This document shows positions 293 to 32,944 of a stretch of DNA of 64,000 nucleotides, piece by piece. Origin of the DNA: Candidatus Gastranaerophilales bacterium (GTDB taxonomy: Bacteria; Cyanobacteriota; Vampirovibrionia; Gastranaerophilales; Gastranaerophilaceae). Positions within the stretch are counted from its first letter, which is position 1. Every line of letters starts with the position of its first letter. A program made the translations under genes and the position numbers. The DNA is taken from NCBI GenBank assembly GCA_947626225.1, contig CANQRH010000003.1, positions 35,363 to 99,362 of the forward strand. Direction: 5' to 3'. The notes beneath the pieces were generated by a model. That model worked only from the letters and a program-made list of their open reading frames with translations. It did no database searches and was not told the origin of the DNA.

Positions 293-1231
293 GTGATGAA
301 AAAAGAGAATTTTAATCGAAAATATTTTCAGTATAATTCTGAAATGCTCTATGCAATAAAAGGATTAGAGTTTATGCTTTTCCATCGGGGGGGGGCTGTA
401 TTCCTTAGGAAGAAAGATGAATTTATTGAAAAATATTATAAGTATTTACAAGAAGAATTTGATGAAAATAAAAACATAGTTTTACCAAAGTTAGATTTTA
501 TCATTACTACAAGATGCACATTAAGATGTAAAAATTGCAGTTCTATGATACCGAAATACAAAGAGCATATCGATTTAACATTTGATGATTTTAAAAAAGA
601 TTTGGATGTAATACTGGATAATGTATTAAAATTAAATTTAATAAATATATCCGGCGGTGAACCGCTTTTACATAAGGAAATTGATAAAATAATTGATTAT
701 GCTTCACAAAAAGAAAAGACAGACATGATAAAAATAATTACAAACGGTACTATACTTCCGAATGAAAAATTATTAGAAACTGTTAAAAAATATAATGACA
801 AAGTTTTCTTTTTCATCAGTAATTATGGCGTAAATCCTGATGTAAAACCGAAGTTAAGAACTGAAGAATTTATAAAATTGTTACAGGAAAATAAAATAAA
901 ATATCAAATGATAAAAGACTTTACTTGGGTTGAAGAAAAAGAAATGCAAAAAAACAATTTACAACATTGTGATGCATTTTACAAATCAATGTATGAAAAT
1001 TGTATATTATCCGCGTGTTTAGGAGTTTTTAATCACAGACTTCATACTTGTCCTAAAGCTTCACATGGAGAACAACTCGGAATTTTTGTTGATAAAGATG
1101 CAATAGATTTAAGAAAAGACAAAAATATTAAAGAAAAATTAATAGAATTTTACAGTAAAGATTTTTATGAACCTTGCAGACATTGTATAAGATCAAGTAA
1201 AGAAGTTATACCGGCAGAACAATTAATTTAA
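293..1231 (+). CDS. radical SAM protein, paralogue 1 (carries a G9 tract, in frame)
   Basis: CX3CX2C motif in DFIITTRCTLRCKNCSS, then GGEPLLH and IKIITNGTILP, plus a C-terminal Cys cluster (CILSAC...HTCPK...YEPCRHC). Alignable end to end with 3254-4231 and 4393-5328. ATG at 296 is an alternative start. Confidence 0.8.
   Translation: MMKKENFNRKYFQYNSEMLYAIKGLEFMLFHRGGAVFLRKKDEFIEKYYKYLQEEFDENKNIVLPKLDFIITTRCTLRCKNCSSMIPKYKEHIDLTFDDFKKDLDVILDNVLKLNLINISGGEPLLHKEIDKIIDYASQKEKTDMIKIITNGTILPNEKLLETVKKYNDKVFFFISNYGVNPDVKPKLRTEEFIKLLQENKIKYQMIKDFTWVEEKEMQKNNLQHCDAFYKSMYENCILSACLGVFNHRLHTCPKASHGEQLGIFVDKDAIDLRKDKNIKEKLIEFYSKDFYEPCRHCIRSSKEVIPAEQLI
387..395 (+). repeat. homopolymer G9 inside radical SAM paralogue 1 (codons 32-35, cat cGG GGG GGG Gct)
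   Basis: Counted directly in the sequence. Such a run is unexpected in an AT-rich genome. Confidence 0.95.
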
Positions 1232-2064
1232 AGGTTATTTCTTAGTCTGTGAAATAATGATTGGTTAATTTTTGCTTTATCCATTTTAATATTTCCGGTA
1301 TATAAAACTTTTTCTTCACAAATTCTAATTGCTTTATTTAAAGATAGTTTATAAAAATAATATCCGCTTAAACGTTCAATAATAAAGCCGATATCTCTTT
1401 TTTCTCCGGATTTAAAAATGATAGGCGGTTCTTTTAAATATTCAAATAATAACGGAAAAATCCATTTACAAAAGTCGAAAAACAACTCTTTTTTCATTAC
1501 ATAAAGTTCATCAAAATATCCTTCGTTTAAATGCATATAATATTTTAAGGATTTTAATTCATAATGGTAGACTTTTTCAAATGTTTTATAAAAACATTGT
1601 ACAAGTTTTTCACCGTGATATTCTTTGAATTGTTCTTCAATAGTCATTAAAGACAAATTAATTTTGTGAGGCAAAATTACATCATAGTCATATAAGTTGT
1701 CTAAAAAATCCGAATTTAAGATTCTTCTGTATCCGAATGAACCAAAATAATCCGGATTCCCCAGTTTATCATAATTTTTCCAAGCCCACCATGTTCCTGT
1801 CAGCAGGCCGATTCTTCGATTATATGAGGATATGTTTCCCGCAAAATCATTATCTCCGATGCAATTGTTTAACAGCCACTTTAAATCTTCTTCTGAAATT
1901 ACTCCGTCTTTGGAAACTTCTTTTGCAATCTCACGGCCTAAATGAATTGGTACTAAAATTTCCGATTTTAACAGTTTGGAAGGTTTAATATAATTTACCA
2001 GAATTTTTAATTTATTTTTATTGTTATTAAAACGGATATATTTCTGTATAGCATCATCAATCAT
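1228..2064 (-). CDS. DUF4422-family putative glycosyltransferase
   Basis: Family signature IGDNDFAGNISSYNRRIGLLTGTWWAWKNY...YFGSFGYRRIL matches the DUF4422 pattern (GDN.GDNIS..N..y.ELT..YW.WKN...Y.G..HYRR). Confidence 0.7.
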   Translation of the reverse strand: MIDDAIQKYIRFNNNKNKLKILVNYIKPSKLLKSEILVPIHLGREIAKEVSKDGVISEEDLKWLLNNCIGDNDFAGNISSYNRRIGLLTGTWWAWKNYDKLGNPDYFGSFGYRRILNSDFLDNLYDYDVILPHKINLSLMTIEEQFKEYHGEKLVQCFYKTFEKVYHYELKSLKYYMHLNEGYFDELYVMKKELFFDFCKWIFPLLFEYLKEPPIIFKSGEKRDIGFIIERLSGYYFYKLSLNKAIRICEEKVLYTGNIKMDKAKINQSLFHRLRNNL

Positions 2065-2076
2065 AATGTAACATTT

Positions 2077-2246
2077 TGTATTTAATGTGATGTTGAAAAA
2101 TAAACCCTTTTACTGTAATAATTGCGGGTTGCAGATAAAAAAAATTCTAAAGAAAATAAGAAAATAAATTGAAAAAGAATATTTATAAAAATGTTTGTGT
2201 TATTATTATTTCGGCAGAAATGATTTAGTAAATCACATTAAATACA
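2077..2246. repeat. 15-bp perfect inverted repeats (tgtatttaatgtgat at 2077-2091, atcacattaaataca at 2232-2246) flanking a 140-bp segment
   Basis: Exact reverse complements read from the sequence. They lie in the divergent intergenic region between the DUF4422 gene (start 2064) and the GT2 gene (start 2284). Confidence 0.6.
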
Positions 2247-2283
2247 TACTGTTGCATTAAGAGAAAAGGATATTTCAATATCG

Positions 2284-3279
2284 ATGAAGAAATTAATTTC
2301 TGTAATTATACCTGTGTATAATGTGGAAAAATATCTTGAGCGTTGTTTGGATAGTGTAATTAACCAAACATATAATAATTTAGAGATTATTTGTGTAAAT
2401 GACTGTTCACCGGATAACAGTATTGAAATATTAAAAAAATATCAAAAACTCGATAGTCGAATAGGGCTTATATCCAACGCTTCGTGTATGGGCCAGGCCC
2501 ATACACGAAGCGTTGGATATCAAAAAGCACACGGGGAATTTATATACTTTCTTGATTCGGATGATTGGATTAAAGAAGATTTCATTGAAAAAATGTACAA
2601 AGCAATTGTTGAAAAGAATCTGCCCGCTGTCTGCTGTACAAACATAAAAAACGTTTATCCCGACGGTACAATGAGCGATTTATTAAAAAGAGATTTTGAA
2701 GAAGGTTTTATGCCTTATACAAAATCTTGTATGATGGCTTGGAGCTGGCTGTTAAAAAAAGATTTTCTTGATAAATTTGATTGCATTTTCCCTTCGGGCT
2801 TAAAATATGAAGATAATTATTTCTATAACGTTTTAATTCGAAGCCTTGAAAATGTCTATATAATTAATTCAACGCAATATTATCACTATGAAAACCCTCA
2901 ATCCACCATGGGAAAAGCAAAAGGCAGAACCATAGACAACTTTGATATAATTGAAGTGATTGATTTAGTCTATGAAAACTATAAAAAAACAAATAAATTA
3001 TCACATTGGTCAATACCGTTTTTTTATATGCCAAAATATATGCTTAACATTCACACAAACAAAGACGAATTTTTCTTAAAGTTAAAAGAATTCTATAAAA
3101 AAATTCAAACTGACGTTATTTCAAATAAACAACTCTATAATCAAATCGAACTCAAGTTTTTTAATGAGATAATAAATTCAAATAACTATAGTGAATATAA
3201 AAAATATCAAACCTCAATAATAGGAGCACTCAGACAAAACGTAAAGGAGCAAAATGGAAGAATTAATCAAAAAGTATAA
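2284..3279 (+). CDS. family 2 glycosyltransferase
   Basis: N-terminal ISVIIPVYNVEKYLERCLDSVINQTY, then CVNDCSPDNS and the DxD motif in YFLDSDD. Confidence 0.85.
   Translation: MKKLISVIIPVYNVEKYLERCLDSVINQTYNNLEIICVNDCSPDNSIEILKKYQKLDSRIGLISNASCMGQAHTRSVGYQKAHGEFIYFLDSDDWIKEDFIEKMYKAIVEKNLPAVCCTNIKNVYPDGTMSDLLKRDFEEGFMPYTKSCMMAWSWLLKKDFLDKFDCIFPSGLKYEDNYFYNVLIRSLENVYIINSTQYYHYENPQSTMGKAKGRTIDNFDIIEVIDLVYENYKKTNKLSHWSIPFFYMPKYMLNIHTNKDEFFLKLKEFYKKIQTDVISNKQLYNQIELKFFNEIINSNNYSEYKKYQTSIIGALRQNVKEQNGRINQKV
2471..2521. repeat. perfect 51-bp palindrome (25-bp arms, 1-nt centre) inside the GT2 coding sequence
   Basis: atatccaacgcttcgtgtatgggcc-a-ggcccatacacgaagcgttggatat. The arms were checked base by base. 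The palindrome encodes ISNASCMGQAHTRSVGY. Confidence 0.95.
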
Positions 3280-4231
3280 TATAGAACCCGTGTTTTACAG
3301 AAGATACTTTCGCTATGGAGCTGAGATGCTCTATGCGTTTTTGCTGCAAAATTTCTTTTTATTTAAAAAAGGAAAATTTCTGAATCCGATTAAGAAAAAG
3401 GAATATTTTGATAAATTATGCCGGGAAGAAATAGTTAATTTCTATGAAAACGGATTTTTGAGAATACCGAAGGTTGATTTTGATATTACAACAAGATGCA
3501 CTCTGAAATGTAAATATTGTTCCAACATGATGCCAAAATTCAGACAAAACGGAAGTCATGTCGAGATGAGTTTTGACGACTTTAAATACATAATCGATGT
3601 TTTGTTTGATTCCAAGGGGGGGGGGCTAAACAGAATCGATATAATTCAATTGATAGGCGGCGAGCCCTTGCTTCATAAGCAGTTACCGGAGATTATAGAA
3701 TACGCAGCCAAAAACGATAAAATAGGAGTTATTAAAATCATCACCAATGCAACGATTTTGCCATCCGAAAAATTAATTGAAACAATAAAAAAATATAACG
3801 ATAAAGTCTATTTTTATATCAGTAATTATTCAACAAACCCCGAGCTTAAAGGCTTATTAAAATTTGAAGAATTTCAAAAGATACTTGACGAAAATAAAAT
3901 CAAATATCAAACGATGCAGGATTTGTCTTGGGACAAGGAGGGCGAATTTAAGGACTATCATTATGACGAACAAACTCTCAAACAGATGTTTGCTTCCTGC
4001 GTTCGATCAAGCTGCCTTTCCATTATCAACAACAAGCTTCATATATGCGCTAAATCCGCTTCGGGAAATGAGCTTGGGTTAATTGATGTGAAAGATTGCG
4101 TAAATTTAAAAGATAATCCTAATTTAAGACAAGATATTATTGATTTTTATAAAAAAGATTATTATGAAGCTTGTAAATATTGTGCGATCAGCGAAGAAAA
4201 AGTTATTCCCGCACAGCAAGTACAGATGTAA
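3254..4231 (+). CDS. radical SAM protein, paralogue 2 (carries a G10 tract, in frame)
   Basis: DFDITTRCTLKCKYCSN, GGEPLLH, IKIITNATILP and a C-terminal Cys cluster (YYEACKYC). Overlaps the GT2 stop by 26 nt. Confidence 0.8.
   Translation: MEELIKKYNIEPVFYRRYFRYGAEMLYAFLLQNFFLFKKGKFLNPIKKKEYFDKLCREEIVNFYENGFLRIPKVDFDITTRCTLKCKYCSNMMPKFRQNGSHVEMSFDDFKYIIDVLFDSKGGGLNRIDIIQLIGGEPLLHKQLPEIIEYAAKNDKIGVIKIITNATILPSEKLIETIKKYNDKVYFYISNYSTNPELKGLLKFEEFQKILDENKIKYQTMQDLSWDKEGEFKDYHYDEQTLKQMFASCVRSSCLSIINNKLHICAKSASGNELGLIDVKDCVNLKDNPNLRQDIIDFYKKDYYEACKYCAISEEKVIPAQQVQM
3616..3625 (+). repeat. homopolymer G10 inside radical SAM paralogue 2 (codons 121-124, aaG GGG GGG GGG cta)
   Basis: Counted directly. 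Paralogue 1 has no tract at the aligned position (LDNVLKLNLINISGGEPLL versus FDSKGGGLNRIDIIQLIGGEPLL). Confidence 0.95.
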
Positions 4232-4392
4232 AATTTAGGAAGCTTTAATCAAAGAGAGGAAATTAAAAATTATTTTATTTGATTTCCTCTTTCAATTCTT
4301 TTTGCCATATCCGTATGGCACCAAGCACAAGCTTCCGCATATTTTTTGAAAAATATTTTAAAATTTCTTTTGATAATTTAACATAATCATCT

Positions 4393-5328
4393 TTATATTT
4401 GTTCCCCGCAAGGCAGATTGTAAATAATATTATCACTATGGCAATAGTGACAAAATTGAGAATAATCTCTTGCATAATATTTTATGAGTTTATCAGTTAA
4501 ATCTTTAGCATTTTTTGCAGTTCTAATATTAACCACTTCTTCTTTTATCCCGTCGGAAAGTTCAAGATTTCTGTTAATATAAACGGAAATAGTGCAAGGA
4601 GTTATTTCACCTTCACATAGCATATTACAAAATAATCCCCAACATTTGTCATGAATAGGTTTAATTTTAGCGGGATCCTGAATGTCTTTATATAGTTCCG
4701 GCATGCTTTGAAAAAGGCCGTCAAAACCGTGAGGATTTGAATATGATATATTGTTTCTGATTAACAAATCCTTAAATTCATTATGTTTTACGGTAATGCC
4801 ATTTTTAATATTTTTTACGTTATTATAATTACTTATTTGAATTTTAAACTTTTTATTCTTCATAACTTTTAAAAGCTCATTTGAAGGCAAAATTGTGCAG
4901 TTTGAAGCAATGAAAACATGTTTAATCTGTCTTTTATTAAGTGCATACTGAACTTTTTTTGCAAGATTGTTATCTATAAGCGGTTCTCCGCCTACGAAAC
5001 CAAAGTAATCAACATAATCTACCGACTTTAACAATTTATCCAAATCCTTTTTAAATTGTTCAAAGGAAGTGTGCTTTAAATGAGTCTTATCATTAAAATA
5101 CGGAATAAAAGTATTACACTGTTTACAATTCATGGTGCATTTGGTAGTTACAACATATTCTAAACAAGGTATAACAGCTTTTCCGGTGAGAAAAAATCTC
5201 GTTTTTATAACTTTATAATATAAACGTTCAGGGGAAAATTTCTTCAGAAAATTTACAAATTTTAATTTAAAAGGGAAAGCAACTGCACAACCTTGGCCTG
5301 CAGTAAAATTTTTATATATTAATTTCAA
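4393..5328 (-). CDS. radical SAM protein, paralogue 3 (the listed ORF starts at TTG; the likely true ATG at 5368 is out of frame across an A9 tract)
   Basis: VVTTKCTMNCKQCNT, GGEPLID and a C-terminal Cys cluster (YSQFCHYC). See the tract at 5333-5341 and the SD/ATG at 5366-5385. Confidence 0.75.
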   Translation of the reverse strand: MKLIYKNFTAGQGCAVAFPFKLKFVNFLKKFSPERLYYKVIKTRFFLTGKAVIPCLEYVVTTKCTMNCKQCNTFIPYFNDKTHLKHTSFEQFKKDLDKLLKSVDYVDYFGFVGGEPLIDNNLAKKVQYALNKRQIKHVFIASNCTILPSNELLKVMKNKKFKIQISNYNNVKNIKNGITVKHNEFKDLLIRNNISYSNPHGFDGLFQSMPELYKDIQDPAKIKPIHDKCWGLFCNMLCEGEITPCTISVYINRNLELSDGIKEEVVNIRTAKNAKDLTDKLIKYYARDYSQFCHYCHSDNIIYNLPCGEQI

Positions 5329-5332
5329 ATTA

Positions 5333-5341
5333 TTTTTTTTT
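5333..5341 (-). repeat. homopolymer A9 (T9 on the + strand) at the 5' end of radical SAM paralogue 3
   Basis: Minus strand reads ATG AAC AAA ACT GAG TAT AAA AAT TTC AAA AAA AAA TAA. A8 or A11 would fuse this start to the long ORF. Confidence 0.95.
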
Positions 5342-5471
5342 GAAATTTTTATACTCAGTTTTGTTCATTAAAATCCTTTCTCATAAATTTCATTGTCATA
5401 ATAAGTTTTAAAACAATAAAGAACTATTTGATTTCCTAATTTCTACATAATATATCTAACTATATAATTAG

Positions 5472-10257: not shown

Positions 10258-11073
10258 TTAATCACATTTATGCTTACCGTTCCAACTTAAATTATTGCAT
10301 TTTAAATAATCCATATTTTCATTATAAATCACCCATGCACTGCAAGCCAAACCATTCTTAGTACCATTATTATTTCCAAGACAACTTCCCTCAAATGAAA
10401 ATGTTGTTTCGTTTGTTGTTCCACAAGGAATGATACTATGTTCGGTTAAATAAAACAGAAAAATATCTTTTGAATAAGTATTTGGTGGTTTTGTACCATT
10501 AACATCATAAACTATATTAGCGTAAACCCGGGATAATTCTCCGTTTCCGCGACTGCTCGCAGCAGCATTTGATAAAACGGAAGAAACAATACCTATTGAA
10601 CTTCCGTCGGCAAGCAATGTTGATGCGTATTTATCAAAGTTTTTATCTTCATCACCATTAAGATAATATACCTTTTCAAAACCGCATGCTGTATGATTTT
10701 TAGAGTTATTGCAAATATTCAGTTTTTTTACATTTTTTAAAACCCTGTCACGAATTAGTATTGCGTTTACTGCATTATATGTTTCTTCATTATCCCAATT
10801 TTCATCCACTCTTCCTGCATCCCTCCCTGTAATCCCCCATTCGCCTGCCGTTCCGTAATCCAAAATCGCAAGCTGATACGCATTAGATAAAGTAGTGTAC
10901 ATTTTTTTGACTTTTGAAACTATAACTTTCTCTTTGTAATCTGAAATTAAAGTCGGAATAGTCAAAGCTGCAACCACACCGATTATACCGAGTGTGATTA
11001 AGACCTCTGCTAAAGTAAATGCTGTCCTTGGGGTTAAATTGCAGCCTAAATAATGCTTACGGGGGGGGGGCAA
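10258..11073 (-). CDS. prepilin-type N-terminal domain protein (pilin/pseudopilin-like) with a poly-C tract at its 5' end
   Basis: FTLAEVLITLGIIGVVAALTIPTLI class-III signal and hydrophobic helix. The listed ORF starts at TTG with no SD. The SD/ATG at 11094-11108 is out of frame (see tract). Confidence 0.75.
   Translation of the reverse strand: MPPPRKHYLGCNLTPRTAFTLAEVLITLGIIGVVAALTIPTLISDYKEKVIVSKVKKMYTTLSNAYQLAILDYGTAGEWGITGRDAGRVDENWDNEETYNAVNAILIRDRVLKNVKKLNICNNSKNHTACGFEKVYYLNGDEDKNFDKYASTLLADGSSIGIVSSVLSNAAASSRGNGELSRVYANIVYDVNGTKPPNTYSKDIFLFYLTEHSIIPCGTTNETTFSFEGSCLGNNNGTKNGLACSAWVIYNENMDYLKCNNLSWNGKHKCD
11061..11070 (-). repeat. homopolymer C10 (G10 on the + strand) in the 5' coding region of the pilin-like gene
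   Basis: Minus strand reads ATG TTT AAG AAA ATT ATT TTC CAT TGC CCC CCC CCC GTA AGC ATT ATT TAG. C11 or C8 would join ATG 11096 to the pilin frame. Confidence 0.95.
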
Positions 11074-11130
11074 TGGAAAATAATTTTCTTAAACATATGT
11101 TTACCTCCGATTAACTGACTTTGTAAGATT

Positions 11131-13014: not shown

Positions 13015-16000
13015 ATGGGATTCGACGACTTTTTTATAAGCAGTAACGGTAAAAAGGAACAGTTGAATAATGCAAAACATGGTGTACGAAGAGAACAGGT
13101 TGACAAAAAGTTCCACAATCTATTTGATGCATATGATATGAATGGTGACGGAACACTTGAAAGCGAAGAATTAGGCGGAGTATTTAAAGGTTTAACGAAA
13201 TATGCGGGATCAGATAAAACGCTTGATTGTACGGAAAATAAACAAGTTGCAAATCTTTTTGTAACTCAAGCAGGCATAGAAGATGCAGACTTTATGGGAT
13301 TTGTCCGTTCAGTTACGCAAGCGGCAGAAGATATTGTTGATTCAAAAGAGACCCCAACCGCTGACGGCGGGAAAGAAGTGACAACAAGATACAAAGACGG
13401 CACAGTCGAGACAATTTCTTATTATCCTGACGGGGGATACAAATTCAAAAAGTTGGAGCAAAAAGGTTCAACAACAACTAATTATTATACAATAGGTAAT
13501 AATTTAGATAAACATTATACTGTTGATGAGATAGAAAGCAGAGTAAAGGAAGCATACGACAGACGTGTTGCGGAAATAAAACAACAAGCTAAACAAAATT
13601 CGGGAATAGAAGGTCGTGGCATTATTCCAATTATACCGAACTATGAAGAATTTAAAAAAGGATATTTGCAGCACTTCAATATTAATTTGGGTAGTGACAC
13701 AAGGAACTTTGAAAGGCACGATTTTGAATTATCCGAACGAGGAAAGTCAGACATAGCGGTTCGTGATTTTGTATTAAATCACTATGTGGAAACGCACAAA
13801 GCTGCTCAAGCAGCACTTGAGTCAATGGGTATTTTAGACGATGTCGGTGCGGCAATAAATGCGGGAGCCGGTGAACTATGGAATACCATTAAAAATGTAT
13901 GGAAAGGAACAGACGAAGAATACCAAAACTTTTATGAATTATCTAAAAAATTTGAGCCGAACTACAACAAAGCATTAAGAGAAAGCGGCAGCTTGGATGT
14001 AATGAGAAGTAAACCCGAAATGTATTTCAGGGATTTTGAAACTGATTTCAAAAAAGATATGGGTCGGCAATACAATTTAGAAAATTCAGTTCAATTCCAA
14101 CAAAGTGCAGAACGATACCAAAATGCTCAAATATTGAAACAGAGAATTGATATTTTAAACAAAGCAATGCAAGAGATTAGGATGTATCAATCAGAGCAAG
14201 ATGCACTGACTTATGCACCGGCCCAAAATGAAGGCTTAAATCCTGCAAGTCATATTATAAGTGCGAACAAATTACTTTTACAATATTTTGATAACGATCA
14301 GGAAGCTGTAGATATGCTTCTTAACGGAGCGATAGGGAATACTCAATCCGTAATAACAGCGATAAAAGGTCTTGCATCAGATACACAGAAGATGTTTGAT
14401 TCGGTAACAGGCGGTAAAAGTTTTGATGAAATAAAGAATGATTACCAAACACAATACAGAGGGATATACGGAACGGATTTAGTACCGGACGAACTGACAG
14501 AAAAAGTAATGGATGCGAAAGCCACGGGTGGGATGTTAAAACTGGCGGCAATAACCGTAATATCCGTTTTAATTACAAAGAGTCCCGTAATGGCAGAGCT
14601 TTCAGCGGCTGCAGGGAGTGCGGAAGCAACGGGAGCGGCGGCAAATTTAGTGAGAACTCTGGTTACAAAATATGGTCAAACGGCAGTACAACAGGGTATA
14701 AAATTTGCAATGACCAGCGGAACTCTGGCCACGGATGTTGGATTGACTTTATTAAACCAGGCAACAAGTGAACGCGGCATAAATGGTGAAGAACTATGGG
14801 AAAGTACCAAAGGTTCAGCCAAATATATATTCTTTGGTGCATATGTAGGTGCGCCTTTGGCACAAGGAGTTTCAAAGGCTCTCGGAAAGGTAGGAGCAAC
14901 CGGAAGATTATTTGAAGGCGGGACAAAAACAGCCAACGGGGCAATTCAAACAACAAGCATCACGGGAGATAAATTAATACAAAACTTTATGAAAGGCGGC
15001 AATAAAGTTCTGACAACAGGCGGTGCGTTTTTGACGGATGTAGCGGCATTTACGGGTTTAGAAGTAGCAACAGAGGGAGCGAATTTAAAAGATGCCCTTT
15101 CAGAACAGGGACAAATGCTTTCTAAGTTAAAATTAATGAACCACGTATTAGAATATATGCTTGGTGCTAAAGCTCATACTGCAACATCGAGAGCAAATAT
15201 AGATGCGGCAATTGAGAAATCCGGAGTAAAGAATTGGAATATAAAAGAGATAAAGACACCGCAAAATACTCAATATGTAGTAGATATAGACGGATTACCG
15301 GTGGGTAAATTTGAAGATGCAAACCAACTAGCTGCGGCAATGCTTGAAAGAGTAACTGCAAACTTTAAAACACCACAGTCATATGAATTAAATGATAAAC
15401 CTGATGAACCGATAGCGGAAGTTAAGCCTGAAACAACACAAACAACGACTGAATCTCATATAGATGCAAATGGCAGATTAGAGAAAGGCTATATTATAGA
15501 TAAGAGAAGCAATCAACCGATAAAAGTTGATACGGAAAATCTTCAAATTGAAAAGAACTCAGCAGTACAAGGCAAAGTTGGTTTTATTAGTATAAGTGAT
15601 AAATTTGGTAATTCTCTGGGAAGTGTTTCATATAACTTAGTGGAAGTTGATGGGCAGAAATCTCTACATTTTGAAGGTTTAGTTTCTAATGTAGAGGGTG
15701 CCGGAATTGGAAGCAGATTAATCCAGGAGTTAACGTTAGTAAGCAGAGACCTGGGTGCAGAAGGCAGATTAACTGCAAGTGCAAGTCCATCGGCTAATAG
15801 GGGTGGTAAACTTACAAATATTGAATTCTATTATAAATTAGGATTTAAAGCTGTTGATCCTGCTAAGGATGCAGCTATCAGAGAATATATAGAAAGAGGT
15901 GAAGAGGTTCCTCTTCAACTTAATATATTTACCGATATTGAGCTAAATCCTAAATTCTCAAAAATTAACAAAATAAAAGGTATTGATGAATTTTCTTCAC

Positions 16001-19000
16001 TGGTTACGAACTGCAAAAATCTAAGTGACGAAGATTTAAGCAATTTGTATATTTATTACAAAAATTACGAACAAGAATGTATCAAGAATAATGAACAAAT
16101 TCCGGACATGAAACAATCCGGCTTTGACAAGTTGATGGAAGAGATTAATGCCAGAAAAATTGACATAAAAGATTTGACCAATCCTGCGGTTGAGCCGCCG
16201 AAAACAGGAGTAAAAACTGAAGTAAAAGAAGATAAGCCTGTTGCCCGAATAAATACGGGTGCATCTGAAATGCAAGAAGCTGAAATGATAAAAAGATATA
16301 ATGAGTTACAGGAAGAATCACAAAAAACAGGAGTGGTTAGCGAAGAATTACTTGCTCTTACATTGGAACTGAATGACAAAGGATATCATTTTAAAGATGG
16401 AAAATTAGATTTTAGTTATAATGAAAATCAAACAAATATGCCGAATTCTGATGTTTCAAAAGCAGAATTTATAAAAAAATTAAAAGAATACGGTATTGAT
16501 GAAATAGCTCTTGAATCCCTTGAATATAATGTAAATCGTATCAATATGAATCTTTTAAATGAGTTAAAAGATTCTCCTGAACTTTTAAATTCAACTTTTG
16601 GAGTTAATATACTTTGTGATGTAAAACCTGAAGATGAGCCGGCAAAAATTGAGGCATTTAAGCTGCTTAAAGATGTTGAGTTATTATCTCCCGACGCAAA
16701 AATTTTAATGATTAATAAAGCCCGAAAAGATAACTTGGATGCCGTTAAACAAAATATTGAAGATTTCAATTATATTAAAGCGTCAGGTATAGATCCGTCA
16801 TTAATTTCCGAATACGGACTTGCTATGACAGTAGATAATATGCATTTTAATCGGGAAATGTTTGATTTACTGAAAGACAATGCAGAATTTGCGGATAAAC
16901 CTTACCTGTCTTTTAACGTAAATCCGGAGGATATTCCCGCAAAGACTGAAATTTATAATTCATTAAAAGACAACAGTTCTTGTCCTATTGAACAGAAAGT
17001 TTCTATTCTTAAAAGATGCAATAAAGACAATTTATCCAAAATAAAAATGGTTGAATCGTACAGAGCCGATGGAATGAATGAACGCTCATTAAAAAATTTA
17101 TATAAGAAATTAGATGATATTGACGAGAATACATTAGCCGCTGTTAAGGATAATGCAAGTTTACTCGATTACTATGAAGTTTCAGATATTATGGACATTA
17201 AACCTGAAGATTTATCTGCAAAAGCGAAAATCGCATCAGAGATGTTCTTATTTTCATTAAAACAAGATAGTAAAATAGCTCAAGAATTAATCAAACAGAC
17301 AACTAAAGATAATATTGAAACAATCCGCAAAAAAATGGAGATGATACAAGCATTTTCTCCATTTACAATAACACAATACGGTTTTGTAAAAAATGATGTA
17401 ATTAGTGACATTCAAAACGGTTCTATTGATGTTGATGTTGTATCAGATTTATTTAAAACAATTAAAAATGATACTGAATTATTAAAATCCATTTCTTCAA
17501 ACAAAGATTTAAAAATTCTTAAAGGTGTAACCGCTGAAGATGTAAAAGCTAAAAAAGAAATGTACGACTTTATGTTATCACAAGCTGAAAAAAGAATGTC
17601 GAATAGTAAATCTAATCTTTCAAACTTAGACAAAGCAGATATACTAAGCAGAGTTACACGAGATAATATAGCTGAAATTAAAGAAGAAATTTCTCTGGAT
17701 TATAGAATTGCTGAGGCTAAAAGCTTGGAAGAACCGCAATTCACACAAAAAGAAGAGCTTTTGCGTAAAAATAAATTAAGAACAATAAATGAAAGTATTG
17801 ATTTGCAGCAACATTTATCATTTGATGAGAAAAATCAAATAAAAGCATTATTTGAAAATGCCAAAACAATGGAAGAATTGGATGCTAAAAGTAATGCATA
17901 TACAGCTATAGTAAATAAAGGAGATGGATATTTATGGTCATTAGGTGATCTTCCAAAAACATTGGATGCAATAAAAATTAAAGAACAAGCAGATGTTATT
18001 GATGCCATTGGAATAGATAACACAAGTTATTTTGACGGTATTTTATCCGAAAATTTTGCAAGAAATTATAAATACTTAAAACAAGTTGATTCTTCATTTA
18101 GACCTGTAGGAGCAGGTATATTCAATCGTTATGCACATTATTTAAAATTTGATGATATTAAATCACAAGAAGAATTTGAAATGTTTAAAGAACTTTGGAA
18201 TGATCCAAAAATTAATAATAGTTCAGTAATATCCCGAATTGTTTCTGATAAAAATAAATATAATGCATACAAAAAGCTTGCATCACATCCTGATTATTTA
18301 AGAATGAATAACGAAGATATCTCTCTTGTTATCAACGCCATCCTACACGGTAAAGTTTCGGATATAACTGATGTTAACAGTATGGCTAAAGATTTAAGAA
18401 TACAAAACATACAAAGCGAATTAAAAGAATACAGATATGATTTGACTCGTGAGAGATACAATTGGGAGAGCCCCGCAACTGAAGAAGACATACAAGGTTT
18501 AACCGGTACTTTCCCTAATTTGAATAGAGCAAAATTTGAAAATTATACAGGAAATACTGTTAAGACTATTCGGGAAGTAATTCAACGTAATACAAATCTT
18601 TCCTTCAACGAAATTGAATCTGTATTAAACAGTGATGTTGATTTTTCAAACTGTGATAAACGTGATTATGTATTGAGCAAATGCTCTCCTGAAATTGCAT
18701 TTAGATTAGCATTCTGTAAAGATGAAGATTTTAATAAAGTTGTAGATGTTCTTGAAAAACGTCCTGAAATGCTTTTAGAAAAATTTGACAGTTCAAGTTT
18801 TGATAAAATGCTCAAAATGTCAGACAAAGAATGGGAAAACTTTAAAGTTTCAATCAAAGACAGAGGTGAAACTGAATTTAACGAAGCTCAATATGCCGCA
18901 GATATTCAGGCTAAGTTAGATGCAGGCTTTGAGCTTGATATGAGTACATACAGAACAATTGAGAGACAAAGAAGATTAGAAGCAAACAGCAGATTAGGCG

Positions 19001-26938: not shown

Positions 26939-27855
26939 TATTTCCCTGCCTTTATAATCTGAATGTTACGCGTTTCGGTAATTTCCTGACGCGCATCTTT
27001 GATAATCTCTCTTTTTTCTTCATCAAGTCTGCATCCGCAAACAAGCCTGTCAATAAACCCCGTATTAACTTTTACGGCTTTATCAAACGCTCCGACTTCT
27101 TCCAAAACATCTTTAATTTGATGTAAATCATAACCGAAAGATTGTTTTGAATTATAAACAAGTGTTTCTCCCGATTGCGAAATGAGCGGTTTCCCGCCGC
27201 GTTCAAAATAGAGTTTGAATACGGATTTCAAATCCTGCATCTCGGATTGCAATGCGGTAACTGTCTGCTGTATTCTTAAAAATCTTTCAAAAAGGTAATC
27301 AACATTGTCAAGCTGTTTAACTTCCCAATCGTATTTTTGAAGATAAAGCTCTTTAAGCTTCGGATAGCAAAGTGCTAAGCCCGTTGTATCCGCCATCGCT
27401 CTGTGATGATTGTTAAGCTCTACATTAAATTTTTCCGTCAAAGCTTCAAGTCCGTGAGAGGGCAGGTCGGGGAAAACCTCTTTGAACATCTGTTGAGAAT
27501 CAATTCTGGGATTTTGAATTTCCTTACCGCAAGTTCTGAGGCTTGCTTCATTGAGAAACGAATAATCAAAAATGCAGTTATGCGCCACAATCGGATAATC
27601 ACCGATAAACTCAAGAATTTTGGGCATTGCTTCCGCTTCGGTCGGTGCATCTTCAACCATATCGGGTGTAATCCCGTGAATTGCAATACTTGATTTTCTG
27701 ATATGCTGCTGAGGATTTATAAGGGTTTGAAATTCATCTTTAATCTTGCCGTTTTCAAGTCTTACGGCAGCAAACTCCACCAATCTTTCCTTCGTAAAAT
27801 CAAGTCCCGTAGTTTCCGTATCAAGTACGATTTCAATTATCTTTTTCCGTGCCAT
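26938..27855 (-). CDS. DEDDh 3'-5' exonuclease (DnaQ/PolIII-epsilon-like) with a C-terminal extension
   Basis: VLDTETTGLD, HNCIFDYSFL and HRAMADT exo motifs. Start moved to ATG 27855 because the upstream 78 codons of the listed ORF overlap trxA antisense. Confidence 0.75.
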   Translation of the reverse strand: MARKKIIEIVLDTETTGLDFTKERLVEFAAVRLENGKIKDEFQTLINPQQHIRKSSIAIHGITPDMVEDAPTEAEAMPKILEFIGDYPIVAHNCIFDYSFLNEASLRTCGKEIQNPRIDSQQMFKEVFPDLPSHGLEALTEKFNVELNNHHRAMADTTGLALCYPKLKELYLQKYDWEVKQLDNVDYLFERFLRIQQTVTALQSEMQDLKSVFKLYFERGGKPLISQSGETLVYNSKQSFGYDLHQIKDVLEEVGAFDKAVKVNTGFIDRLVCGCRLDEEKREIIKDARQEITETRNIQIIKAGK

Positions 27856-27940
27856 TTTCTTATCCTGTTGAATTCTATTAAGAATAATAGCACAAAAAAA
27901 AATTCTGTGGTAAAATAAATCCAAAAGGAGAGATAAAAAA

Positions 27941-28258
27941 ATGGCAGCAGATATTAGTGATTCAAGTTTTGAACAAGAAGTTCTGAAAAGTGAAATTCCG
28001 GTAGTGGTAGATTTTTGGGCACCATGGTGCGGGCCTTGCAGAAAATTGGGGCCGGTGCTTGATGAAATTGCTTCGGAATTTGAAAACAAAGTTAAGTTTG
28101 TAAAAGTAAATACGGATGAAAACTTAAAAACGGCACAAGATTATTCAATCAGCGGTCTGCCGAGCCTTTTGGTATTCAAAAACGGAAAAGCTCTTGAAAG
28201 ACTTGTCGGTTTAATGCCCAAATCCACCATAATTTCAAATATCGAGAAACATCTGTAG
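27941..28258 (+). CDS. trxA: thioredoxin
   Basis: WAPWCGPC active site, 105 aa. Confidence 0.95.
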   Translation: MAADISDSSFEQEVLKSEIPVVVDFWAPWCGPCRKLGPVLDEIASEFENKVKFVKVNTDENLKTAQDYSISGLPSLLVFKNGKALERLVGLMPKSTIISNIEKHL

Positions 28259-28261
28259 AAA

Positions 28262-31200
28262 TTATGCGTAATATTTTCTGTACAAACGATTTCTTGCTTC
28301 GGTATCAAGTTCAATAATTCTTTTTGCTTTTGCGGAAAGGGAAGTTTCGGGACGTGTTTTTTTCTTAGATTGTTCTGTATTGGATTGATTCATTATACCC
28401 ATAACACCGCTTACAACGTTCATAGCTTCGCCCGTTGTTTCTAAAATTTTATTCAATTTTTGACGTCTTTCAGATTTAATCTGAGCCTTACTTTTCTCTG
28501 TTTTAGAAGAATCGGGTTTCGTATTTTTAAGTTCATCGTCCGTTTTATTATCTGTTGTATCAGTAGGCTGTTGATCAACTTTTTCGCTATCGCCTATCGG
28601 TGCTTTTTCATTTTTCTCTGTAATATTCTGTTGTTCGTTATTTTGATTGTTTTGCGGATTATCGCCCGTTGAAGCTTCCGGTGCTTTGATAATATCTTCT
28701 GATGTTGTCTCAGATACTGCAGGCTGGTTGTTATTTGTCTGATTGTTAGCTGCATTTTGAAGTTCCTGTTGAGCCTGTGCAACTTCTGCAGGTGACATGC
28801 CTGTTTTATCGGAAAGTTCAACAATTTTATTTTCACTTGTTTTTGCTATAGATGCTGCTTCTTTTACGGCCGGCGAATTAGCGTCCGTATTAACAACGTT
28901 ATCCGGAATATTTGAATTGTCGTTTTTCGTTTCATCTTTTTTAGCATTTTGAGTTTCTTTGTTTTTCTTCGCTTCAGCTTTTTCTGCCTCTTTATTTTTC
29001 TTCGCTTCGGCTTTTTCTGCTTTTTTAGCTTCTTTTGATGACTGCTTTTCGGTTTCAGTTTTGTCTTTACCTTCAGTTTTGTTGCCGTCATTATTTTCAT
29101 CACCGTTATTTTCACCGTCATTGCCTTCGGCATCAGAGCCTTTAGGTCCGCTCATTAACGAATATGCACTTGATGCAAGGCTCATTGCTCCGCCTACCGT
29201 GCCTAAAATGTTTGCAATTTTTTCATTTCCGCCGAATTCGCTCATCAATTGGCTGGTAGATGACATTGCTGTACCGACAACACCTGCGATTTGCATAACA
29301 CCGTTCATACCGCTTTGTATACCGCCTGCAAGACTGCCTGCTGCTCCTGTTATTGATTGTGCTACACCTGCAACAGTAGCAATTTTACTCATTATACCGT
29401 TAGCTTCTTTACCTTGAACTGCTCTGACATTGTTTACCATTTGGGCTGTATTAGATACAATGCTAAGTCCCTGAGTAATACCTGTCATTACAGGTCCCAT
29501 AGCTGCTCCGGCACCTGTTACTGAAGTTGCTACGGATAATGCGGTAGATGCCAATCCCATCAATGCGCCGGCTAAATTACCGTTAGCAAGGTTAATTATG
29601 GCTTTTGTAACTCCGCATGCCGCTACACCTATTGTACCGACATTTATTAATATCGCACCTGCTGATGAAATAGCGGCACCGGCTGCTGCCGTAAACGGGT
29701 TTGATAATAATGGCGGAGCAATAATCTCAACCATTATCGTACCGGTACTGAGGGTAATATTGAATATGTTTTCCTGAATACCGACAATGCCTAATTGTTT
29801 TGCAAGTTTTTTCTGTTTTTCCTGCTCTTTCTTTTCGGCTTCTTTGATTTTTTTATCTCTGATTTTATTTTTCTTTTCAAATTGTTTATATCTTTTGTTA
29901 TTAGTTTTTTGTAAATTTTTCAGTTTTGCTTGATTTTTGGTAACTTTGCTGTTTGAAATTGTAAATTGATTAGCAAGCATTTCAATTTCCATGCCGTTTG
30001 CCTGCAATTCCTGTTCATGATTTGAACCACCGCCTGCCTGCATGGAAAATCCCGATGCAGCAGCCTGCTGACCGTTCATGGAAGCACCGACAGCCTGAGC
30101 ACTTGCGCCTGCAGCTTCATCTTCAGCCATCATTTGTTCATTAGCGGTTGAAAGTTCTTCATAACGGGCAAGCATTTCAGCTTGTTTTTTAATTTCTTCT
30201 TCAGATTCTTTATTAAGTTTTTCAATTTCTTTCTGATCCTTCTTCATTTCTTTTTCTAACTGCTTAGATTCTTTAAGAAGGGTTTTTTCATCTTTTTCGG
30301 TGTCGGATAATACTTTTTCGGAATCATTGGCGCTTTCCTGACCGTCGGCTGCAACATCGTCTACTGTATCTTGAGCTTTGTCGGTATCCATATTTTCTTC
30401 TTTATCTTCTTTTTTGGTTTCACCGGTTGAATCATTTCCGCTCAGATCACCGACTTCCTGAGTTGCATCTTGTGAATCTTCAACGGCATCATCAGGATTT
30501 TTTTCAGCTTCGGTTGTCGATACTTCGGCTGTTTCATCACCTGCATCCTGTGCTTCTTCAATCTCTTGTTCAGCATCCTGCGGTTCGGCAGATTCTGTAC
30601 TTTCAACAACTTCAGCAGCTTCATCAGTGCCGACAGGAGTATCAGCCGCAACAGCAACGGCTGTTCCTTCTTCCGGAGCAGATGCTGTTGTCATTGTCGG
30701 TGCTGCGGTTGTACCGGTTGTTACGGCTGCAGAGTCTGTAGTTTCACCTTCTGCCCCCGCTGCCGCTTCAGTCGGTTCGCCTTGAGCTTCTCCCGTTTCT
30801 TCGCCTTGTGCATTTTCTTGCATTACGTCTTCTGATTCTTCGCCGGTAACTACGGACATTTTATCTTTTACCGCGCTTAACGAATCTATTGCCCCAGGAA
30901 TTGCTTCTCCGGCTTTTTTAACCGAAGCATCAGCTTCATCAACCATTGAATCATCATCTGATACCACCATTGCCGCAGTACCGATAGCTATACTGATGAA
31001 ACCTTTCATTATCGTTGCTATACCGAGATTTATCAGCGCGATGGCATGTCCGTAAGCAAACGGTACGGAAAGTAATGCCATACCCATTTGATTTAACATG
31101 TTACCGAATTCTACCGTTCCGCCGCCTATCATTATCAAGGTTCCGCCGCAGTTGTTAATAAACTGCATTCTTTCGTTGTAATCAGGAATTTCTTTTTGAG

Positions 31201-32944
31201 CCAGCTGTTGATTAGCTTCAAAGTTTCCGGCTTCTTCACCGATTTTGGTATCAATAGTATTGATTTCTTTTGATAAACCGGAAGTTGTATCAGCTTTATC
31301 CTGAACGGTTTCCTGCTGAATTTCGGCAATACGTGCATTGTTGGCTACGATAATTTCTTTTTGCTGTTTAATTTTTTCTTTTGTTTCATCGTCGTATTCG
31401 GGTTCTTCTTCATCTTTGTCTTTTTTACCCTGAATAATCTTTTTGTCAACTTCTTCAGCGGACATACCGGTTATATCTTCGAGTTCTTTTGTAGCTTTTT
31501 CATTTTCTTTTTCAAGATTTGCAATTTCTTCCTGACGGACAGCTTCTCTTTCTTCAAATTCACCGATAACCTTAGTAACAATTTTATCGACAGTTTGTGC
31601 AATTTTAGTATCCTTTTGTCCTGCAAGTATAAATTTCAACTGTTCTTTTATCATTGCTTTTGATTCTTCGTTTATCGCATTTGCTTCATCTATCAAACGA
31701 AGAACACTTTCATCAGTTACAACGAATGAAGTCTTTTCTTCTTTATTTTCTGTACTGTCTTCCGCATTTTCATCGCTTCCTTCTGCAGCGCCTTCCTGCA
31801 TTTCAACTTCTTCTCCTTCGCCTTCAATCGTTTCAGCGGAGCCGACCTTGATATCAAGAACTTCTCCGATATCCATTGCCGAAGCTTGTGATTCTTCCAT
31901 GTATTCTTTCGTATCATTACCTATTTTGACTGAATCATTAGCAAGAGATTTACCCTGAATCATTGCGACAATTGCTCTGAAAAATCCGATTTGACCTGCT
32001 ACTTCTTGGCGGGTGTGTTTACGATTTGTTTTAGAAATGTAATAAGTAAGTGTATCACCTATTTCAACAGTTTCATCGGCAAGTTTTTCACCAAGTGCCG
32101 CAATAATATTTATTTCGGTCAGTTTGTTTGAAAGTTCAGTATCGTTAAGTTTCATGCCTTTGTTGTCATCTTCTTTGGCATTCAACTGTTTTGAAAGTTC
32201 TTCATAACGTTTGCTTTCGCTGTCACTCAAGGCATTGCCGTTGTTGATTTTATCCTGAAGCGACTTCCATTCTCTTACCATACCTTCGTATTCTTCAAGT
32301 GAACTTCTGATATCTTTCTGATTTTCCTGAAAAGCTTTTTTCTTCTTTTCCTGTTCGGGTAGAATTTCTTGAATTAAGTCATCAACTTTTTCGTTTGTTT
32401 GTTCACATTCTTCAATATTTTTCTTTGCTTTAGGGATAAGAGCTAAAAAGGGTTCTTTTTCCGTAGGTTCTTCGGCATTTTCATCCGTTTCCTCAGCACT
32501 GTTAATATTTGCTCCGGAAGATTCATAAATCGTATGAGCGATGTCCAAGACATCCTGAGGAATGCACACACCTTCATTTTCCATTTGAATAATTTCTTCA
32601 GCGGAATATTGCGCCCATTGGGGATCCATAATTAAGCCGTTTTCTTTGGCATAAGCATCAAGCGTATATTTTATTTGATTTAAAACATTTTGTACATCAG
32701 AATAATTGATGATGTATTCACCGTCTTCATTTAAATAACCTTCCAATTCCAAGCCGTAGCCTGAAGGTACAACTATATTATAACCCGTTTCATCCTTGTA
32801 ATATTGCTCAAACTCACTCTTTTGCTTATCATCCATATTCTCGTAAAGAGTCAAAGCATCATCATACGAAATCTTTTTACCGTATATTTCAAGGTAAAAA
32901 TTTTGAAATATTTCAAATTTGTTTGGTATTCCGCTGATTGCCAT
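28262..32944 (-). CDS. large (1560 aa) hypothetical protein with coiled-coil/acidic low-complexity regions and two Gly/Ala-rich hydrophobic blocks
   Basis: Uninterrupted 4.7-kb ORF. Blocks CGGTLIMIGGGTVEFGNMLNQMGMALLSVPFAYGHAIALINLGIATIMKGFISIAIGTAAMVV and IIAPPLLSNPFTAAAGAAISSAGAILINVGTIGVAACGV...GGAMSLASSAYSLMSG. Long E/K/D/T-rich stretches. Confidence 0.8.
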   Translation of the reverse strand: MAISGIPNKFEIFQNFYLEIYGKKISYDDALTLYENMDDKQKSEFEQYYKDETGYNIVVPSGYGLELEGYLNEDGEYIINYSDVQNVLNQIKYTLDAYAKENGLIMDPQWAQYSAEEIIQMENEGVCIPQDVLDIAHTIYESSGANINSAEETDENAEEPTEKEPFLALIPKAKKNIEECEQTNEKVDDLIQEILPEQEKKKKAFQENQKDIRSSLEEYEGMVREWKSLQDKINNGNALSDSESKRYEELSKQLNAKEDDNKGMKLNDTELSNKLTEINIIAALGEKLADETVEIGDTLTYYISKTNRKHTRQEVAGQIGFFRAIVAMIQGKSLANDSVKIGNDTKEYMEESQASAMDIGEVLDIKVGSAETIEGEGEEVEMQEGAAEGSDENAEDSTENKEEKTSFVVTDESVLRLIDEANAINEESKAMIKEQLKFILAGQKDTKIAQTVDKIVTKVIGEFEEREAVRQEEIANLEKENEKATKELEDITGMSAEEVDKKIIQGKKDKDEEEPEYDDETKEKIKQQKEIIVANNARIAEIQQETVQDKADTTSGLSKEINTIDTKIGEEAGNFEANQQLAQKEIPDYNERMQFINNCGGTLIMIGGGTVEFGNMLNQMGMALLSVPFAYGHAIALINLGIATIMKGFISIAIGTAAMVVSDDDSMVDEADASVKKAGEAIPGAIDSLSAVKDKMSVVTGEESEDVMQENAQGEETGEAQGEPTEAAAGAEGETTDSAAVTTGTTAAPTMTTASAPEEGTAVAVAADTPVGTDEAAEVVESTESAEPQDAEQEIEEAQDAGDETAEVSTTEAEKNPDDAVEDSQDATQEVGDLSGNDSTGETKKEDKEENMDTDKAQDTVDDVAADGQESANDSEKVLSDTEKDEKTLLKESKQLEKEMKKDQKEIEKLNKESEEEIKKQAEMLARYEELSTANEQMMAEDEAAGASAQAVGASMNGQQAAASGFSMQAGGGSNHEQELQANGMEIEMLANQFTISNSKVTKNQAKLKNLQKTNNKRYKQFEKKNKIRDKKIKEAEKKEQEKQKKLAKQLGIVGIQENIFNITLSTGTIMVEIIAPPLLSNPFTAAAGAAISSAGAILINVGTIGVAACGVTKAIINLANGNLAGALMGLASTALSVATSVTGAGAAMGPVMTGITQGLSIVSNTAQMVNNVRAVQGKEANGIMSKIATVAGVAQSITGAAGSLAGGIQSGMNGVMQIAGVVGTAMSSTSQLMSEFGGNEKIANILGTVGGAMSLASSAYSLMSGPKGSDAEGNDGENNGDENNDGNKTEGKDKTETEKQSSKEAKKAEKAEAKKNKEAEKAEAKKNKETQNAKKDETKNDNSNIPDNVVNTDANSPAVKEAASIAKTSENKIVELSDKTGMSPAEVAQAQQELQNAANNQTNNNQPAVSETTSEDIIKAPEASTGDNPQNNQNNEQQNITEKNEKAPIGDSEKVDQQPTDTTDNKTDDELKNTKPDSSKTEKSKAQIKSERRQKLNKILETTGEAMNVVSGVMGIMNQSNTEQSKKKTRPETSLSAKAKRIIELDTEARNRLYRKYYA
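28957..29022 (-). repeat. 2 x 33-bp tandem repeat inside the 1560-aa gene (encodes KEAEKAEAKKN twice)
   Basis: + strand ctttgtttttcttcgcttcagctttttctgcct / ctttatttttcttcgcttcggctttttctgctt. Confidence 0.85.

Follow-up and report, generated by a model that had tools for sequence, protein, structure and literature searches.

Gene content of the islet

We analysed a 64,000-nucleotide stretch of DNA from a Candidatus Gastranaerophilales bacterium (contig CANQRH010000003.1, positions 35,363 to 99,362), here called the window, in which three radical S-adenosylmethionine (radical-SAM) paralogues, rSAM1 to rSAM3, adjoin one DUF4422 gene and one family-2 glycosyltransferase (GT2) gene. An earlier note on this DNA, made from the letters alone, had proposed that a long homopolymer tract in each paralogue makes the three genes a combinatorial, phase-variable system of glycan modification. 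We find the open reading frames (ORFs) and the tracts (G9 at 387-395, G10 at 3616-3625 and A9 at 5333-5341) where that note had placed them, and Pfam searches confirm the DUF4422 and GT2 neighbours. The features of interest are as follows.

-1350 to -1341 (window coordinates; 367-376 of contig L060): G10 tract in a HAD-like gene, seen in L001/L060
1-292 (ORF portion 68-292), plus strand: 3' end of the HAD-like gene, whose 5' start lies left of the window
293-1231, plus strand: rSAM1, 311/312 aa, Pfam PF04055, in frame (ON)
387-395, plus strand: G9 tract in rSAM1, codons 32-35 (R-G-G-A)
1228-2064, minus strand: DUF4422, putative glycosyltransferase-type protein (Pfam PF14393, E 3.7e-30)
2284-3279, plus strand: GT2 (Pfam PF00535, E 9e-36)
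3254-4231, plus strand: rSAM2, 325 aa, Pfam PF04055, in frame (ON)
3616-3625, plus strand: G10 tract in rSAM2, codons 121-124
4393-5368, minus strand: rSAM3, a divergent paralogue; start ATG 5368, body of 311 codons in the frame of TTG 5328
5333-5341, minus strand: A9 tract in rSAM3 (T9 on the plus strand), codons 10-12 from ATG 5368
10258-11096, minus strand: prepilin-type gene with an N-terminal methylation motif; C10 tract (G10 on the plus strand, 11061-11070) in codons 9-12; OFF

The islet, flanked by uvrD and ffh, runs from the HAD-like gene to rSAM3. With 24-31% GC it is poorer in GC than ffh (36-40%) and than the window overall (36%). The nearest genome matches are all metagenome-assembled genomes (MAGs) of Candidatus Gastranaerophilales, Vampirovibrio or Melainabacteria from animal and human guts. 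Contigs and loci compared with the window carry L-numbers; in L013 the orthologous islet lacks the DUF4422 gene, and in L016 DUF4422 is fused to a GT32-like domain and a G9 tract is present. We consider it probable that the region is a small low-GC islet for surface-glycan modification, variable in gene content, in a Gastranaerophilales gut bacterium, and that its poly-G tracts act as switches.

The left border of the islet can be seen in L001/L060, a contig that is identical to the window and reaches 4.2 kb further left. There, 1.3 kb left of the window start, the G10 tract divides the HAD-like gene into ORFs of 266 aa and 548 aa; G9 in its place would fuse the two halves into a protein of about 809 aa. 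The L013 orthologue, also with G10, is a single frame of 824 aa with HAD/Hydrolase domains. In L108 and L110, HAD-like genes with G10 tracts adjoin homologues of the radical-SAM genes.

Family and fold of the radical-SAM paralogues

The three radical-SAM proteins are related to different degrees. The earlier note had them aligning over their whole length, which holds for rSAM1 and rSAM2 (46% identity over full length, E 5e-102); rSAM3 aligns with either over only about 270 aa, at 28-29% identity (E 7e-28 and 4e-31). The shared motifs described there are likewise present in rSAM1 and rSAM2 and looser in rSAM3, which reads VFIASNCTILP and ends in ...PCGEQI. All three ORFs score above the Pfam gathering cut-off for PF04055 (35.6-54.7 bits; cut-off 29.5). 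Genomes were scanned for the family with a 13-sequence alignment, and conservation was read from an alignment of 39 sequences. In the latter the cysteines of the CX3CX2C motif (C75, C79 and C82), the SAM-binding GGE (G121, G122 and E123, part of GGEPL) and four C-terminal cysteines (C237, C253, C295 and C298, arranged C...C...CxxC) are invariant.

To what known enzymes does the family belong? An AlphaFold2 (AF2) model of rSAM1 (pLDDT 93, pTM 0.92) was compared with the PDB by Foldseek, and the top matches, by a wide margin, are four chains of SpeY (7wzx/7wzv; E 3e-13, template-modelling (TM) scores 0.62/0.64, 274 columns); BtrN (4m7t) is also matched, at E 1.3e-5. When the PDB is searched with a family profile, SpeY is the sole full-length match (positions 74-309), and the four C-terminal cysteines align with those of SpeY, as in the short C-terminal domain of twitch-type enzymes, where such cysteines ligate one auxiliary [4Fe-4S] cluster. 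No NCBIfam model scores above its cut-off for the rSAM ORFs, and the weak matches are confined to the CX3CX2C core. The earlier note had left the subfamily to profile and structure prediction, and both place it with SpeY-like twitch enzymes and not with SPASM enzymes. SPASM maturase identity is rejected: the SPASM domain (PF13186; seven cysteines, two auxiliary clusters) is matched by none of the three ORFs, which have 4-5 conserved C-terminal cysteines, and SPASM NCBIfam models score far under cut-off and on the core only. In these models and alignments, rSAM1-3 resemble an uncharacterised SpeY/BtrN-like twitch radical-SAM family.

The paralogues could instead be maturases or activases of peptides, of the kind that act on ribosomally synthesized and post-translationally modified peptides (RiPPs), standing beside glycosyltransferases by chance and modifying no glycan. 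Their N-terminal core does match many peptide-maturase models weakly, and CteB, SuiB and SkfB turn up in the fold search. However, the model matches cover the CX3CX2C core only and lie far under cut-off, the sole full-length match is the carbohydrate enzyme SpeY, there is neither a SPASM motif nor a small precursor-peptide gene, and many genomes show the family beside or fused to GT2, DUF4422, AKR (aldo/keto reductase), HAD or methyltransferase genes. We therefore regard a peptide-maturase role as quite improbable.

The fusions to aldo/keto reductase bear on the chemistry. In L005 (868-3114) an rSAM paralogue is fused behind an AKR with a C9 tract in the linker, and the same arrangement in L008 (3197-5460) is frameshifted at a G9. 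More generally, in related Gastranaerophilales MAGs the radical-SAM domain is fused to the AKR or its gene directly follows that of the AKR (L005, L008, L016 3161-4300); the linker is repetitive, with YWLFNIIPILKSRK-like motifs, and the C9 or G9 tract is found either there or within the AKR domain. SpeY has reportedly been proposed to derive from an epimerase. From the modelled fold, a role of the rSAM proteins as sugar dehydrogenases or epimerases is a tentative assignment, to which we would give somewhat less than an even chance.

Tract statistics and predicted effect on the reading frame

We next compared the tracts with all other homopolymers of the window. Runs of G or C decay geometrically up to length 5, none has a length of 6-8, and then come G9, G10 and G10. 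Against 0.007 runs of at least 9 expected by geometric extrapolation, three are seen, and two of these three fall in rSAM genes. Runs of A or T, by contrast, thin out smoothly: 11 have length 8, 2 have length 9, and long runs are fewer than extrapolation would give. The G-runs of rSAM1 and rSAM2 are extreme outliers and the A9 of rSAM3 is statistically ordinary, so that the earlier view of G9 and G10 as highly unexpected in such AT-rich DNA stands. The length cut-offs of PhasomeIt, from Campylobacter phasome work, point the same way: poly-G/C counts from 7 and poly-A/T from 10, lengths that G9 and G10 exceed and that the rSAM3 A9 does not reach. One further A/T run in the window reaches length 9, an A9 at 27894-27902, in an RNase_T-type exonuclease ORF (26938-28089, minus strand).

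In silico, a change of one base truncates both proteins severely: rSAM1 would shrink to 60 aa with G8 and to 37 aa with G10, and rSAM2 to 124 aa with G9 and to 141 aa with G11. In the AF2 model both tracts fall in loops. That of rSAM1 lies in the loop joining two N-terminal helices, and that of rSAM2 lies within a 4-codon insertion (SKGG), downstream of the helix that follows CX3CX2C and ahead of the strand that leads into GGEPL. By their length, position and predicted effect the poly-G tracts of rSAM1 and rSAM2 show every sequence hallmark of contingency switches.

Homopolymers are prone to error, and the rSAM2 tract coincides with the ends of two contigs, so we considered whether the tracts are artefacts of assembly or base calling. 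This reading is rejected as exceedingly improbable: the same tracts, with the same lengths and frame, recur in independent assemblies from more than one assembler (Logan contigs, and NODE contigs at ENA that come from several samples), and they are found again in an NCBI MAG that stems from another study and has 75-91% nucleotide identity.

Origin and maintenance of the rSAM1 and rSAM2 tracts

The two poly-G tracts are derived and were acquired independently, as the earlier note had argued from their non-homologous positions. This is supported by the lineage-specific nature of the 4-codon insertion that holds the rSAM2 tract, which is absent from about 35 homologues, and by an rSAM1 allele without a tract in close strains. 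In strains 93-96% identical to the window (L063-65), this allele (AAAGGGAAA, KGK) reads AAAGGGAAATTT (KGKF), which is the family consensus. One of the strains that carry it has an identical DUF4422 protein; the alleles of rSAM1 are therefore mosaic.

Once gained, the rSAM1 tract has been kept. G9 stands at the same site in the L013 orthologue, which is 75% identical, although 4-fold degenerate sites of the two genes are only 41.5% identical. Its codons are rare: GGG makes up 9.8% of glycine codons, and CGG or AGG 4-8% of arginine codons (CGG 4%). Because this uninterrupted run of rare codons is intact while 4-fold sites have diverged, its conservation points to selection for the tract itself.

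Three further observations concern the 5' end of rSAM1 and the seeding of tracts. In the window allele (293-300) a Shine-Dalgarno sequence is missing, and the start (GTG ATG) comes 1 nt behind the stop codon of the HAD-like gene. Since this allele lacks a ribosome-binding site of its own and begins so close to that stop, its translation may, speculatively, be coupled to that of the gene before it. At this place the alleles of L013 and L063-65 carry AAGGAGATAATTATG (L013 5100-5140; L063 440-470). The 5' ends and tract regions of the rSAM1 alleles are mosaic, suggesting recombination within the gene. Lastly, in L019 (5833-5840) a G8 run encodes the conserved GGE motif itself (CAG GGG GGG GAA), which shows a route by which tracts may be seeded from Gly-Gly codons.

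Tract-length variation within the strain and in relatives

To look for switched forms, ten predicted variants were looked up exactly in a collection of 15 billion proteins: rSAM1 with G8 or G10; rSAM2 with G9, G11 or G13; rSAM3 with A8 or A11; the HAD fusion with G9; and the pilin-like protein with C8 or C11. One of the ten is present. The protein P0126, encoded on contig L067 (sample ERZ27249462), is verbatim the predicted C11-ON product of the pilin-like gene, which lies outside the islet. L067 is 99.99% identical to window positions 258-21096 over 20.8 kb and differs in only two places: G10 has become G11 in the pilin-like tract, which turns the gene ON, and A has become T at 11110, beside its Shine-Dalgarno sequence. 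In the window strain, then, the sole indel over 20.8 kb is a one-G change that switches the pilin-like gene ON. Both differences lie in one translation-initiation region, suggesting selection on the expression of the pilin-like protein.

A second case of length variation is found in the MAG Lapin-015__bin36, which has about 91% nucleotide identity to the window and whose rSAM2 orthologue is assembled both as G9 (OFF) and as G10 (ON). Contig 67 (L013) ends 67 nt past G9 with the frame stopped, and NCBI annotates the truncated 129-aa product (P0123); contig 23 (L005) begins 40 nt before G10 with the frame open. Their overlap of 116 nt is identical apart from the tract. This pair is what would be expected from a mixed population of G9 and G10 reads, with homopolymer error or two strains as other possible sources. 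Poly-G tracts thus change length in the Gastranaerophilales lineage, and the length polymorphism for which the earlier note suggested comparing related genomes is found in the pilin-like gene (G10/G11) and in the rSAM2 orthologue (G9/G10). The rSAM tracts of the window strain itself are constant in the assemblies that span them.

That constancy is among the points that weigh against switching of the islet. Every window-strain assembly that spans the tracts has G9 in rSAM1 (4 assemblies) and G10 in rSAM2 (5 assemblies), and seven of the nine contigs with an identical GT2 encode the same neighbouring proteins. The exact look-up returned no predicted OFF product or in-frame length variant of the rSAM tracts; the G9 fusion product of the HAD-like gene is likewise absent from the collection. 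The Lapin-015 pair may stem from sequencing error in the homopolymer or from two strains living side by side. Little weight attaches to the contigs that end at the rSAM2 tract (L061, L062), as Logan contigs also break at 3473-3497, off any tract. Finally, the assigned substrate and chemistry draw on a fold match of TM 0.62 together with a domain fusion, and all NCBIfam models stay under their cut-offs.

Three candidate signs of switching were set aside in the course of this comparison. The contigs of the same strain (L001-L004, L060, L061 and L068-L070) were rejected as evidence, their tract lengths being identical, and the contig ends of L061/L062 were downgraded as signs of graph branching at the rSAM2 tract on account of the breaks at 3473-3497. 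The difference between G12 and G11 in L108/L110 is not slippage: it is a substitution at the tract edge, and both genes are in frame.

These data leave room for a reading in which the poly-G runs of rSAM1 and rSAM2 encode fixed, glycine-rich surface loops, produced by mutation bias or hitch-hiking in constitutive genes that undergo no meaningful switching. It would account for the equal tract lengths across all window-strain assemblies, the G9 kept in the L013 orthologue, the location of both tracts in predicted loops and the lack of an OFF product in the look-up. However, the rare codons run perfectly uninterrupted though synonymous sites are saturated, intermediate runs of 6-8 are missing from the window, the orthologous rSAM2 tract is found as both G9 and G10, the sister tract of the same strain, in the pilin-like gene, has altered its length, and homologues in L049, L008, L031 and L036 are frameshifted exactly at their tracts. 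On this balance fixed loops are unlikely, and we take it as likely that the poly-G tracts are contingency switches.

Elsewhere in the window, two giant ORFs have no Pfam family above threshold: one of 3224 aa at 13015-22689 (plus strand) and one of 1560 aa at 28262-32944 (minus strand).

rSAM3 and its A9 run

The A9 run of rSAM3 has a different character. The frame that opens at ATG 5368 ends after 12 codons, and the body of 311 codons lies in another frame; A8 or A11 would join the two into a protein of 324/325 aa. Comparison of sequences shows ATG 5368 to be the true start, because the ribosome-binding site and the MNK start are conserved with the 58%-identical L018 orthologue. That orthologue has no tract.

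Conserved poly(A) frameshifts are rescued by transcriptional slippage in insect endosymbionts. We think it fairly probable that the rSAM3 A9 is no switch: the gene would be either a recent pseudogene (A8 to A9) or expressed at a low level through transcriptional slippage. The run fits the smooth decay of A/T run lengths and falls below the PhasomeIt cut-off, its length of nine is shared by the seven assemblies examined (the window, L001-L004, L062 and L067), including a second strain that is 99.4% identical (L062), the A8-ON protein is absent from the collection, and the L018 orthologue is tract-free. On the other side, the 311-codon body is fully open in DNA of 64% AT, and the tract stands at a classic 5' switch position, exactly between the conserved ribosome-binding site and ATG and the body, so that a one-base change restores 324 aa. 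The A9 of rSAM3 may be a slower switch, or equally a recent pseudogene or a slippage-rescued frameshift, and its role as a switch is doubtful.

Tracts across the radical-SAM family

Comparison across lineages indicates how often the family carries tracts. Of the 43 family genes in 27 Gastranaerophilales-type loci, 8 contain a G/C tract of at least 8. These loci hold 23 tracts in all, 8 of them within rSAM genes, and rSAM genes make up 12% of the bases (P=0.005). Four Helicobacter/Campylobacteraceae loci show the pattern more strongly: a tract is present in five of six family genes, and five of nine tracts lie in family genes (P=0.0007). Homologues are found with the tract in the ON state (L016, L022 and L028) and in the OFF state, frameshifted exactly at the tract (L049, L008, L031 and L036), and the tract of L049 lies at the alignment site of the window rSAM2 tract. 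The Helicobacter homologues carry poly-G tracts in ON and OFF states as well.

Other tract-bearing genes in related MAGs encode AKR, HAD-like, DUF4422-GT32, PEP-mutase/cytidylyltransferase, RgpF and GT8 proteins and methyltransferases, and together they are a typical glycan phasome. In L016 (11131-12486, minus strand) a fusion of cytidylyltransferase and PEP-mutase, a pairing of phosphonate biosynthesis, carries a C10 tract, which hints at phase-variable decoration of glycans with phosphonate. Because many Gastranaerophilales MAGs have no tracts at all, the habit is lineage-specific. A metagenome scan added little: it returned 80 family loci, mostly marine, none of them a close orthologue of the window genes.

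Proposed mechanism

Based on these data, we propose the following model. The GT2, the DUF4422 protein and the HAD-like protein would assemble or decorate a glycan of the cell surface, in which each rSAM paralogue would edit one residue. A carbinol carbon of a sugar or sugar-nucleotide may lose a hydrogen to the radical-SAM enzyme, leading to a ketone (oxidation) or to an epimer; one glycan residue would be altered either way. In relatives with the fusion, the AKR probably re-reduces the ketone. Slipped-strand mispairing at the G tracts of rSAM1 (G9), rSAM2 (G10) and the HAD-like gene (G10) would turn each gene ON or OFF independently, as one G gained or lost yields a truncated protein, and the population would mix combinations of glycan modifications. 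The layout of the genes, their family and fold, the derived origin of the tracts and their standing as outliers, and the changes of poly-G length within the lineage are shown by the data. Switching at the window strain's own rSAM tracts, like the substrate and the chemistry, is what we infer from this comparison.

The proposal of the earlier note is supported in part. It had counted three switching radical-SAM enzymes and up to eight glycan states. Two of these switches, rSAM1 and rSAM2, are solid, and the A9 of rSAM3 is ordinary; the tract of the HAD-like gene would restore the number to three, and rSAM1, rSAM2 and the HAD-like gene could together give up to eight states. The window would represent one of them, with rSAM1 ON, rSAM2 ON and the HAD-like gene split (OFF).

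A bolder generalization is that the SpeY-like twitch radical-SAM family, sometimes fused to AKR, is a dedicated, cross-phylum class of phase-variable glycan-editing enzymes that has gained poly-G tracts repeatedly and independently in Campylobacterota and Gastranaerophilales and oxidises or epimerises single sugar residues. We offer it tentatively, as a possibility with the balance tilted against it. If it is true, uncultured gut commensals possess a phasome in the manner of Campylobacter, made up of glycan and pilin genes, in which several independently switching rSAM paralogues produce combinatorial surface states.

The data place a strategy of glycan phase variation in Gastranaerophilales, non-photosynthetic cyanobacterial relatives that live in animal guts, with the pilin-like switch caught in both states in the same strain. 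This suggests that these commensals, like host-adapted pathogens, are exposed to fluctuating pressure from phage or host immunity. It also gives a sequence-only handle on the surface biology of Gastranaerophilales. The SpeY-like family, often present as multiple paralogues, sometimes fused to AKR and found with switches repeatedly in two phyla that are far apart, presents the enzymology of radical-based glycan tailoring with a concrete target.

Comparison with known systems

The closest enzymes by fold are SpeY of the spectinomycin pathway and BtrN of the butirosin pathway, twitch radical-SAM carbohydrate dehydrogenases (PDB 7wzx/7wzv and 4m7t). Like them, the window proteins have about 300 aa, with a CX3CX2C core and, behind it, a short C-terminal domain in which four cysteines are conserved, and their genes stand in the context of a carbohydrate pathway. 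In contrast, the window family is only 18-19% identical to them (TM 0.62), has an additional N-terminal helix pair of about 60 aa, and lies in a cell-surface glycan islet and not in an aminoglycoside cluster; some of its relatives are fused to AKR, and its activity is predicted.

For rSAM3 the relevant comparison is with the poly(A) slippage of insect endosymbionts. The likeness is that the frame is broken at A9 in every assembly while the downstream ORF is intact. The differences are that A9 is at the short end of efficient slippage and that rSAM3 lies in a contingency-type islet, where switching at the level of DNA is equally plausible.

Textbooks describe phase variation of surface glycans driven by slippage as a trait of a few host-adapted pathogens. 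The window resembles the contingency loci of Campylobacter and Helicobacter in its intragenic G9-G10 tracts in low-GC DNA, in the presence of tracts in glycan-modification genes together with a pilin-type gene, in the setting of ON and OFF by changes of one base, in the coexistence of alleles with and without a tract and of several switches per islet, and in that Helicobacter members of the window rSAM family are also tract-bearing. It differs in its host, an uncultured, non-pathogenic member of the Gastranaerophilales (Melainabacteria/Vampirovibrionia), and in being known from sequence. A literature search found no paper linking Gastranaerophilales or Melainabacteria with phase variation.

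Radical-SAM enzymes are not new to this setting: the earlier note knew of no description of them as contingency genes, a view that the tract-bearing Helicobacter homologues contradict, as does the C. fetus core phasome. The latter, obtained with PhasomeIt, lists as putatively phase-variable two radical-SAM genes, CFT03427_1545 with G(9-10) and CFT03427_1558 with G(9) (PMC6321876), which are likened to the window family by their listing as radical-SAM only. Taken together, the mechanism is familiar, the bacterial lineage is new for it, and the enzyme family, though uncharacterised, bears switches recurrently.

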